The translations under genes were made by a program, and so were the position numbers. Of a DNA stretch of 13,856 nucleotides, positions 11,951 to 13,297 are shown one piece after another. Under the pieces are notes generated by a model, which searched no databases, was not told the origin of the DNA, and saw nothing but the letters and a program-made list of their open reading frames with translations. The DNA comes from a virus, in the IMG/VR virus record IMGVR_UViG_3300025000_001631; one strand, given 5' to 3'. How positions within the stretch are numbered: position 1 is the first letter of the stretch; each line of letters starts with the position of its first letter.

Positions 11951-13297
11951 CTATTCAGATTTACCCCTCATGAGGATGCCCCACGTAGCATTCTCCCATG
12001 CCTTAGTAAATTCAGGGGTATTATCTTCTGCACCTGTCATACGATGGATGGTTTCATGCACTAGCGTCTTCCAACACTCTTCCTTAGATAACAAAAGACT
12101 TGCCCTTAACCATACAGTATCTGTCTTTCGCTCATATAGTCCATTGCACTCATTTCCATGCTCATCATATACATGCTCAGACACCTTTACAGTCCCATAA
12201 TCCCCTACATATAACTTACATAACCTCTTACACCACCCTAACATAGTTGCTTGCTCTGAATTAGGCTTGCGATGAAAGTTCTTAGTGGCTTGCGCTAACT
12301 CATGTAAATCGTTTGTATAGGGTACCCCTACTGTTAAAAATAGGTTCTTCCAAGCACTGGGAACATTTACTAACACTTTGTACCGGTGGTATCTTGCCTG
12401 GGTATCTGTTTCAGTACCAGTAGCCAAAGAGAGCTTATCCCCTAATTCTAGTCTAATAGCGGTTCTCCAGATTTCTACTGAGGGGCAGCGCCAAGAGGAT
12501 ACCCCTGCTTCAGCTTCTAGTGATGTAGGATTAACCATTATACCTTTAATAACTGCTCTGGCCAACTCAGCATCCTCTGTGTGTGCTAACAGTCCATTTA
12601 CCGCTTCCCTGACTTTACTTAGATCTACCATGTTGCGGTCACGATTTTTAATATTTGAATTAGTGAAATTGTAACCGAATATGCTATCCAAGGATGTAAT
12701 CAACACCCCATTAACAAATACTTGGCCCGAATTTTGGAGTAAGATGGAATCTGTGGATAAGAGCTCCTGCCCAACCCCACTCAGTACTGCGAAGGATTGT
12801 GTAGCTAGTGCAAGTTCTTCAGGTGTGCATTCCATGTAAATTGTAGTACCTTTGTGCACATCATTGTCTTCTAGATAGTAGGTCAATACATTAACCTCAG
12901 GATCTATATCTGAAGGTTCAAGTGCTGGGTGTAGAGTGAATCCATTTGTCTCAATAAAGACCTCCCTACCCTTTCTGAGAGCAACAAGCATACCCAATTT
13001 TGATCCCTCTCCGTAGTCTCCAGGAGCACCACTTTTACCACGCTGTTCAGACTCCCCTATAAGTAGCTTACCCTTGGTAAATCCACTGGGGTAGTTATGA
13101 ATAACTGCATACTTTCCGTTGTGGGTAATCGAAGTTTCATCACCTAAGATTGTCTTAGCAAATACATTGTTTTGAATAAATTCCTTGAGAGCTTCTAGAT
13201 TACCCCAATGAGGTAAATTATTTTCTGACATCCCTATTTCATACCTATGCATTGAATTGATCTCATTTATCATTTGTGTTATTGCACCTACACCCAT
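11951..13297 (-). CDS. 448-aa protein with a C-terminal SprT-like (HExxH) zinc-metallopeptidase domain; the N-terminal region may be a GHKL/Bergerat-fold ATPase (weak)
   Basis: The C-terminus LLLSKEECWKTLVHETIHRMTGAEDNTPEFTKAWENATWGIL parallels E. coli SprT LLLENGEAMLRQVVPHELAHLLV...HGKEWKWMMENVLGV (recalled from memory). In the N-terminus, EFIQNNVFA resembles an N-box, HNGKY a degenerate G1 and GDYGEGSKLG a G2, with plausible spacing. GAGGAGGG lies 7 nt before the ATG. Confidence 0.75.
   Translation of the reverse strand: MGVGAITQMINEINSMHRYEIGMSENNLPHWGNLEALKEFIQNNVFAKTILGDETSITHNGKYAVIHNYPSGFTKGKLLIGESEQRGKSGAPGDYGEGSKLGMLVALRKGREVFIETNGFTLHPALEPSDIDPEVNVLTYYLEDNDVHKGTTIYMECTPEELALATQSFAVLSGVGQELLSTDSILLQNSGQVFVNGVLITSLDSIFGYNFTNSNIKNRDRNMVDLSKVREAVNGLLAHTEDAELARAVIKGIMVNPTSLEAEAGVSSWRCPSVEIWRTAIRLELGDKLSLATGTETDTQARYHRYKVLVNVPSAWKNLFLTVGVPYTNDLHELAQATKNFHRKPNSEQATMLGWCKRLCKLYVGDYGTVKVSEHVYDEHGNECNGLYERKTDTVWLRASLLLSKEECWKTLVHETIHRMTGAEDNTPEFTKAWENATWGILMRGKSE

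Follow-up and report, generated by a model that had tools for sequence, protein, structure and literature searches.

GHKL ATPases drive DNA clamps, chaperones, kinases and nucleases, and the classical ATP-dependent proteases, such as Lon, FtsH and the Clp family, are built on an AAA+ ring. The MORC and paraMORC GHKL ATPases, including the motif of their S5 domain, were described by Iyer, Abhiman & Aravind (2008, PMC2292703), and the phage protein rIIA has been described as an N-terminal GHKL domain with variable C-termini in a study that also covers SprT-like peptidases of jumbo phages (Iyer et al., 2021, PMC7824862). MORC proteins carry a nuclease or a chromatin reader as their C-terminal effector, and paraMORC proteins occur in host restriction-modification systems. 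In contrast, the protein described here is phage-encoded and its C-terminal effector is a protease. It is the product of one gene in a 13,856-nucleotide stretch of viral DNA (IMG/VR record IMGVR_UViG_3300025000_001631; hereafter the window, meaning the whole stretch), and joins an N-terminal GHKL nucleotide-binding module, a family-specific middle module and a C-terminal minimal zincin in a single chain of 448 amino acids (aa). This is a new architecture of known superfamilies, in which both catalytic domains are known and the middle domain is without known structural relative. Full-text literature searches returned no description of a GHKL-zincin fusion, and no report of GHKL coupled to a protease in one chain was found in the literature searched.

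Three modules of the 448-residue protein

The open reading frame (ORF) claimed by the initial annotation was confirmed on the minus strand, with a Shine-Dalgarno sequence, GGAGG, approximately 8 nt upstream of its start. The predicted product (∼50 kDa, isoelectric point (pI) 5.6) is identical to protein P0001 of the metagenome catalogues, and 50 homologs were found. The window is phage DNA with a GC content of 41% and showed no close relative in a megablast search against GenBank phages. PADLOC and NCBIfam searches of the protein gave no matches. The AlphaFold2 model of the protein has a mean predicted local distance difference test score (pLDDT) of 90.3 and a predicted template modelling score (pTM) of 0.75. 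Conservation was counted over an alignment of 172 full-length relatives, to which all counts out of 172 refer. The ORF is a genuine phage gene, conserved and coding for a protein of three parts, with the following features.

11951..13297, minus strand: GHKL-middle-zincin gene, 448 aa, ATG start, stop codon included (from the ORF list)
12830..13252, minus strand: GHKL (Bergerat-fold) nucleotide-binding domain, aa 16–156
13151..13192, minus strand: motif I (N-box), ALKEFIQNNVFAKT, aa 36–49, from conservation and the MORC2 and T4 rIIA alignments
13079..13102, minus strand: motif II (G1-box equivalent), IHNYPSGF, aa 66–73, aligned to LDDGAGM of MORC2
12992..13066, minus strand: ATP-lid region with the MORC-type GxSxK/Q motif and the G2 box, LLIGESEQRGKSGAPGDYGEGSKLG, aa 78–102
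12839..12853, minus strand: putative motif IV, KGTTI, aa 149–153, from conservation and fold position
12263..12829, minus strand: family-specific middle domain, aa 157–345
12635..12646, minus strand: NRDR motif, aa 218–221, from conservation
11954..12262, minus strand: C-terminal minimal zincin metallopeptidase domain, aa 346–448
12023..12058, minus strand: catalytic motif HETIHRMTGAED, of the form HExxHxxxGxxD, aa 414–425

The strings on which the initial annotation had based its domain calls are all present (EFIQNNVFA at aa 39–47, GDYGEGSKLG at aa 93–102 and LLL...WKTLVHETIH...EFTKAWENATWGI at aa 400–441), and they fall on near-invariant columns of the alignment, showing that the motifs did not arise by chance.

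The N-terminal module has the Bergerat α/β sandwich of the GHKL superfamily. Its N-box carries the ExxxN signature as E39-F-I-Q-N43 (E39 in 171/172 relatives, N43 in 163/172), with E39 a candidate general base and N43 a candidate Mg2+ ligand, and aligns with ELVDNARDA of MORC2 and RELITNMIDA of T4 rIIA. The Asp of the canonical NxxD is replaced by Phe46, a position occupied by Asp in 107 relatives, Tyr in 39 and Phe in 25. The lid region contains the complete GxxGxG of the G2 box as G93-D-Y-G96-E-G98-S-K100, in which G93 and G98, like the upstream G81, are found in all 172 relatives, G96 in 169, E97 in 167 and K100 in 160. This region aligns with FGKSAKR...IGQYGNGLKSG of MORC2 and with SSSKAESNDFIGGFGLGSK of T4 rIIA. 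KGTTI is less well conserved (G150 in 123/172, T151 in 100/172); it sits on strand E151–156 of the model, and this fold position points to motif IV.

Both the MORC2 alignment and the modelled secondary structure put the G1 box at aa 66–73. A degenerate G1 box had been predicted at HNG; the degeneracy is real, but HNG (aa 59–61) forms a β-turn between two strands and lies outside the box. At aa 66–73 the canonical DxGxG reads N68-Y-P70-S-G72, with Asn68 in place of the adenine-contacting Asp and Pro70 in place of the central Gly, which sets the clade of the window protein (NxPxG) apart from the MORC/paraMORC, Hsp90, MutL and type II topoisomerase GHKL proteins, in which the box is DxGxG. Within the family itself, 37 of the 172 relatives retain the canonical set D46/D68/G70/G72, and 48 share the Y|F46/N68/P70/G72 combination of the window's clade.

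Pfam HATPase models gave no match to the window protein even at E 10, so that it stays below the Pfam gathering threshold for GHKL domains, and only two of 42 relatives were matched, weakly. Despite this silence, the GHKL fold proposed at the outset is established by independent lines. A family profile built from 136 diverse members matches MORC2 (E 1.7e-4) with the N-box, G1 box, MORC-type GxSxK and G2 box in register, and matches topo VI-B at E 0.003 and HtpG/Hsp83 at ∼0.01. Moreover, the tandem relative P0052, taken over its whole length, exceeds the Pfam HATPase_c_3 cutoff of 25 bits with a score of 86.5, its best stretch (aa 683–757) lying inside the module homologous to the window protein. 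Finally, hhalign aligns the family with T4 rIIA in the GHKL core (76% probability over the GHKL motifs, E 2.3e-5), and Foldseek returns many rIIA models, which are the closest named viral structures (E 1e-7 to 1e-4). The module is thus a GHKL/Bergerat fold of the MORC/Hsp90/MutL/rIIA subtype. With rIIA it shares the motif subtype, phage encoding and a design in which a GHKL core precedes a swappable C-terminal region. The homology does not, however, extend over the full length, as only 72 columns align and rIIA proteins are 650–970 aa long, lack a zincin and belong to other PHROG families.

The middle module consists of a small β-sheet followed by helices and occupies the place of the transducer in GHKL ATPases. 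No structural relative was recognisable for it; in particular, it is not recognisably S5-like, and the GhXhhpXXRhl motif of the MORC S5 domain is absent from the family, which has instead an RDR motif 10–12 residues after Y209. This site, NRDR in the window protein, is the best conserved of the middle domain (R221 in 172/172, D220 in 169/172, R219 in 166/172), and two phage homologs without the peptidase, Ab18 ORF34 and Hena1_170, retain the RDR motif as well. We propose NRDR as a candidate phosphate-sensing, or ‘transducer’, basic site.

The C-terminal module has a zincin fold with an HExxH catalytic helix on a minimal scaffold of about 100 residues, as in the minigluzincins proabylysin and projannalysin. 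HExxH is kept in all 172 full-length family members, with H414, E415 and H418 invariant, D425 in 171/172, G422 in 143/172 and E435 in 119/172. From the motif, His414 and His418 are predicted zinc ligands and Glu415 the predicted general base. In SprT, Wss1 and Spartan the third zinc ligand is a His downstream of HExxH. No conserved His follows the motif in this family, in which Asp425, at +7 after G422, is the likely third ligand instead.

A SprT-like zinc protease had been suggested for this region, and the zincin call stands, although formal membership of Pfam SprT-like (PF10263) does not: at 14.2 bits (E 0.039), the score of the window protein falls short of the 25.6-bit cutoff. SprT-like is nevertheless the recurrent best Pfam family, being found in 24 of 42 relatives, in every case below threshold (best E 0.0081). 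PHROGs gave a weak ‘metallo-protease’ match (phrog_87, E 0.0024). The family profile also matches proabylysin, Wss1 and P4 of the chlorovirus PBCV-1, and the domain is as near to the minigluzincins and PBCV-1 P4 as to SprT. It differs from the SprT-like/WLM proteins (E. coli SprT, yeast Wss1, human Spartan) in that all members fall below the Pfam threshold and in having HExxHxxxGxxD and an acidic domain, and from the minigluzincins (proabylysin 4jiu, projannalysin 4jix, selecase 4qhf), which are stand-alone archaeal proteins, in being the C-terminal module of a larger chain. On these comparisons the domain is best described as SprT/WLM/minigluzincin-like rather than as a demonstrable PF10263 member.

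As a separate observation, the best sequence match to the zincin domain in the PDB is the PBCV-1 minor capsid protein P4 (6ncl chain c2, E 0.002), with HELAH aligned to HExxH, which raises the possibility that this chlorovirus protein has a minimal zincin of a related kind.

Family size and variant architectures

The family profile was scanned against 1.84 billion cluster representatives (50% identity), of which 6,215 matched at E≤1e-3 and 1,856 at E≤1e-30. The top 150 matches are mostly 425–485 aa long and span the whole profile. The architecture had been noted as unrecognised, and this holds for the literature searched; with 1,856 representatives at the stricter threshold, however, it is no rarity, and its carriers make up a family that is large in uncultivated phages and nearly all of whose members are unnamed.

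An 80%-identical copy of the window protein lies on a viral contig of ∼142 kb. The complete architecture also occurs on distant viral contigs of 61–286 kb and on three contigs of metagenome-assembled genomes (MAGs); in a scan of bacterial genomes, three distant MAG-contig matches were confirmed, with no close homolog among the matches listed. In 50,697 deposited phage genomes, the full architecture was present in just two, those of Exiguobacterium phage vB_EalM-132, which is the closest annotated carrier (44% identity; EalM132_00137, ‘hypothetical protein’), and of Moorella phage MTATph1.

More than 100 cultured phages, whose hosts are Vibrio, Pseudomonas, Pectobacterium, Erwinia, Klebsiella and E. 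coli, encode GHKL-middle proteins that lack the peptidase and are annotated variously as hypothetical protein, HATPase, histidine kinase or RIIA lysis inhibitor. They correspond to phrog_6077 (Ab18 ORF34, Hena1_00170, Edwardsiella phage KF-1), whose profile matches the window protein at E 2.8e-32 (aa 16–253 against profile positions 1–246 of 366). Homologs of this type cover positions 4–303 of the family hidden Markov model and retain the N-box, G2 box and RDR motif, but lack the zincin domain. Two of them were located as follows.

L019, 2968..4059: peptidase-less homolog, ORF34 of Pseudomonas phage Ab18
L020, 3001..4152: peptidase-less homolog, Hena1_00170 of Erwinia phage Hena1

No separate HExxH/zincin gene was found adjoining the homolog in either Ab18 or Hena1. 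With so many cultured phages possessing GHKL-middle proteins without a peptidase, the zincin looks like an appended effector.

Tandem versions are also present, as chains of ∼800 and ∼1,100 aa with two or three GHKL-middle units (P0052–P0061, P0066–P0072, P0079, P0091 and P0116). Most of these have exactly one HExxH, at the C-terminus, and five (P0061, P0066, P0068, P0070 and P0072) have none. A PF25856 assignment precomputed for some homologs, a ‘faint’ MPN635_N match, was not reproduced in our own scans and was dropped.

Genomic neighbourhood

The gene content and order of the window match those of SPO1-like (Herelleviridae-type) phages, in which the gene occupies a fixed slot, the order being 5′–3′ exonuclease, DNA ligase, gp33, the gp34 sigma factor, a few small genes, the GHKL-zincin gene and a UvrD/PcrA-like helicase. 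When the flanking ORFs of 16 loci were compared all-against-all, the UvrD-like helicase was the only neighbour family to reach beyond the SPO1-like group; it lies 1–6 kb downstream in nine of the 16 loci, in two independent lineages. However, three other lineages lack it in their flanks, and nowhere does it directly adjoin the GHKL-zincin gene. In Ab18, the peptidase-less homolog has a DNA ligase on one side and an exonuclease on the other. Loosely, the context points to a DNA-metabolism module, but it could be no more than module synteny.

Immediately downstream, a run of genes on the same strand ends in a terminator-like hairpin.

11763..11939, minus strand: 58-aa transmembrane ORF, directly downstream of the GHKL-zincin gene
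11197..11751, minus strand: M23 peptidoglycan peptidase with a hydrophobic/transmembrane C-terminal tail
10968..11186, minus strand: 72-aa ORF
10937..10908, minus strand: strong terminator-like hairpin with a 12-bp stem, after the 72-aa ORF

This arrangement suggests that the GHKL-zincin gene and the three genes after it form one transcription unit. M23 genes are found near the homolog in four related loci (L005/L013, L006 and L021). The small downstream ORF was considered as a partner and rejected, being transmembrane only in the window and the 80%-identical relative and unrelated elsewhere; the M23 peptidase and the vault-like neighbour described below are likewise not conserved past close relatives.

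Several other genes of the window were recorded in passing. An ORF of 842 aa (8327..10855, minus strand) resembles the major vault protein, with Pfam MVP_shoulder at 91.2 bits (cutoff 25; aa 532–641), a Vault_3 repeat at 30.4 bits (cutoff 28.8) and a weak Band_7/SPFH match; it gave no PHROG, PADLOC or NCBIfam match. The 80%-identical relative has a conserved counterpart of 832 aa, and also a Band_7 gene ∼4 kb upstream of its GHKL-zincin gene. To our knowledge, a vault-shoulder protein is unusual in a phage. The UvrD/PcrA-like helicase (5980..7947, minus strand) has 655 aa and no intein, whereas its ortholog in the 80%-identical relative (L013, 15329..18580) has 1,083 aa with an inserted intein and LAGLIDADG endonuclease. 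Downstream of the helicase, on the minus strand, are a YdjM-like inner-membrane protein (3625..3969) and a DUF7376 protein (3973..4503); DUF7376 is similarly placed in relatives, often with a SIR2 gene between it and the helicase. Upstream of the GHKL-zincin gene, a 116-aa ORF (13448..13798, minus strand) matches phrog_16330 ‘primase’, and relatives have a Toprim or ‘ribonuclease M5’-like gene at that position.

A proposed nucleotide-gated metalloprotease and its alternatives

With middling confidence, we read the protein as a nucleotide-gated, self-associating (oligomerising) metalloprotease. It would be a soluble three-module phage enzyme in which nucleotide, bound in the GHKL pocket, would cause the GHKL-middle units to self-associate as in other GHKL clamps. 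The self-associated state would then control access of a substrate protein to the zincin site, so that a specific host or phage protein would be cleaved during expression of the replication and recombination genes. We infer that proteins of the window's clade bind nucleotide, oligomerise and cleave a protein target of this kind, and that the two activities are coupled. That both the pocket and the zincin site are functional is suggested by the invariant columns, which fall on E39, N43, G93, G96, G98 and K100, on the RDR motif and on HExxH with D425, also within the window's own clade. Furthermore, the tandem chains, most of which have a single HExxH, provide a Rosetta-stone-type argument that GHKL-middle units self-associate and can share one protease. 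A tentative extension is that the family may constitute a class of energy-dependent protease not recognised before, with a GHKL/Bergerat switch in place of an AAA+ ring gating a zincin that would cleave one particular host protein, for example a defence or DNA-metabolism factor.

Several observations weigh against a nucleotide-gated protease. With the G1 Asp changed to Asn, its central Gly to Pro and the N-box Asp to Phe/Tyr, the window's clade may not bind ATP canonically. In Hsp90, an Asp-to-Asn change at the G1 position abolishes ATP binding. At the other end of the chain, no Pfam peptidase family takes the C-terminus above threshold, and no conserved partner gene, substrate or defence-system link was found.

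The pocket substitutions are also the chief argument for a pseudo-ATPase, in which the GHKL module of this clade would neither bind nor hydrolyse ATP and would serve instead for dimerisation or target recognition, or bind another ligand, the protease being constitutive or activated by its substrate. The restriction of the canonical residues to 37 of the 172 relatives and the blindness of the Pfam HATPase models to the window protein fit such a scaffold. A dead pocket, however, is hard to reconcile with the invariance of E39, N43, the G2 box, K100 and the RDR motif inside this clade, and Asn68 could still accept a hydrogen bond from the adenine N6; we therefore regard a pseudo-ATPase as possible but doubtful. 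Since neither the catalytic Glu nor the Mg-binding Asn nor the G2 lid varies in the window's clade, the pocket appears to be retuned rather than dead there, and the Asn/Pro G1 box might retune the switch to another nucleotide or signal.

Action on DNA-bound host proteins had been put forward for this protein, with the GHKL module clamping DNA as in MORC or MutL and a SprT/Wss1-like domain cleaving DNA-bound or crosslinked proteins such as topoisomerases, nucleoid proteins or defence nucleases. This found no direct support. All three modules are acidic to neutral (pI 5.3–6.1, in the window protein and as family medians), and no zinc-binding or basic DNA-binding subdomain, helix-turn-helix or other DNA-binding module was detected. 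The zincin, moreover, is no closer to SprT than to the minigluzincins and PBCV-1 P4, for neither of which do we know of a DNA link. The helicase, absent from the flanks in three lineages and nowhere adjacent, may owe its linkage to module synteny. Given the acidic domains, the absence of such a module and a context that may be mere synteny, we consider a DNA-linked protease unlikely.

A further alternative is that the zincin acts in cis, releasing or maturing the GHKL-middle portion, as proposed for the zincins of polyvalent proteins. Many phage zincin-like peptidase domains have been argued to be autoproteolytic (Iyer et al., 2017, PMC5512222), which counts in favour of self-processing, and the GHKL-middle unit, standing alone in many phages, suggests that the N-terminal fragment would be viable once released. 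But no long disordered linker separates the modules in the compact model (pTM 0.75), and a three-domain protein of ∼50 kDa is no polyvalent giant; tandem variants with one peptidase for several GHKL units fit a shared effector at least equally well. Self-processing is thus quite improbable. An envelope or anti-exclusion factor that resembles T4 rIIA in acting at the membrane, alongside the neighbouring small membrane protein and M23 peptidase, would suit the rIIA-like structures and hhalign match, the same-strand run down to the hairpin and the M23 genes of the four related loci, but is very improbable, as the rIIA similarity is confined to the 72 GHKL-core columns, PHROGs assigns the protein to phrog_6077 and not to an rIIA family, no hydrophobic segment was noted in it, and neither the small downstream ORF nor the M23 gene is conserved in more distant relatives.

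For the nucleotide-gated protease, the family itself offers a natural experiment, comprising DxGxG and NxPxG clades as well as peptidase-less and tandem-fused versions, and genetics is feasible because two cultured phages, vB_EalM-132 and MTATph1, hold the full architecture. If the coupling of nucleotide pocket and peptidase is real, it would be a new way to build a nucleotide-regulated protease, and the family, with its 1,856 nearly all unnamed representatives, would be a new and abundant family of phage effectors.

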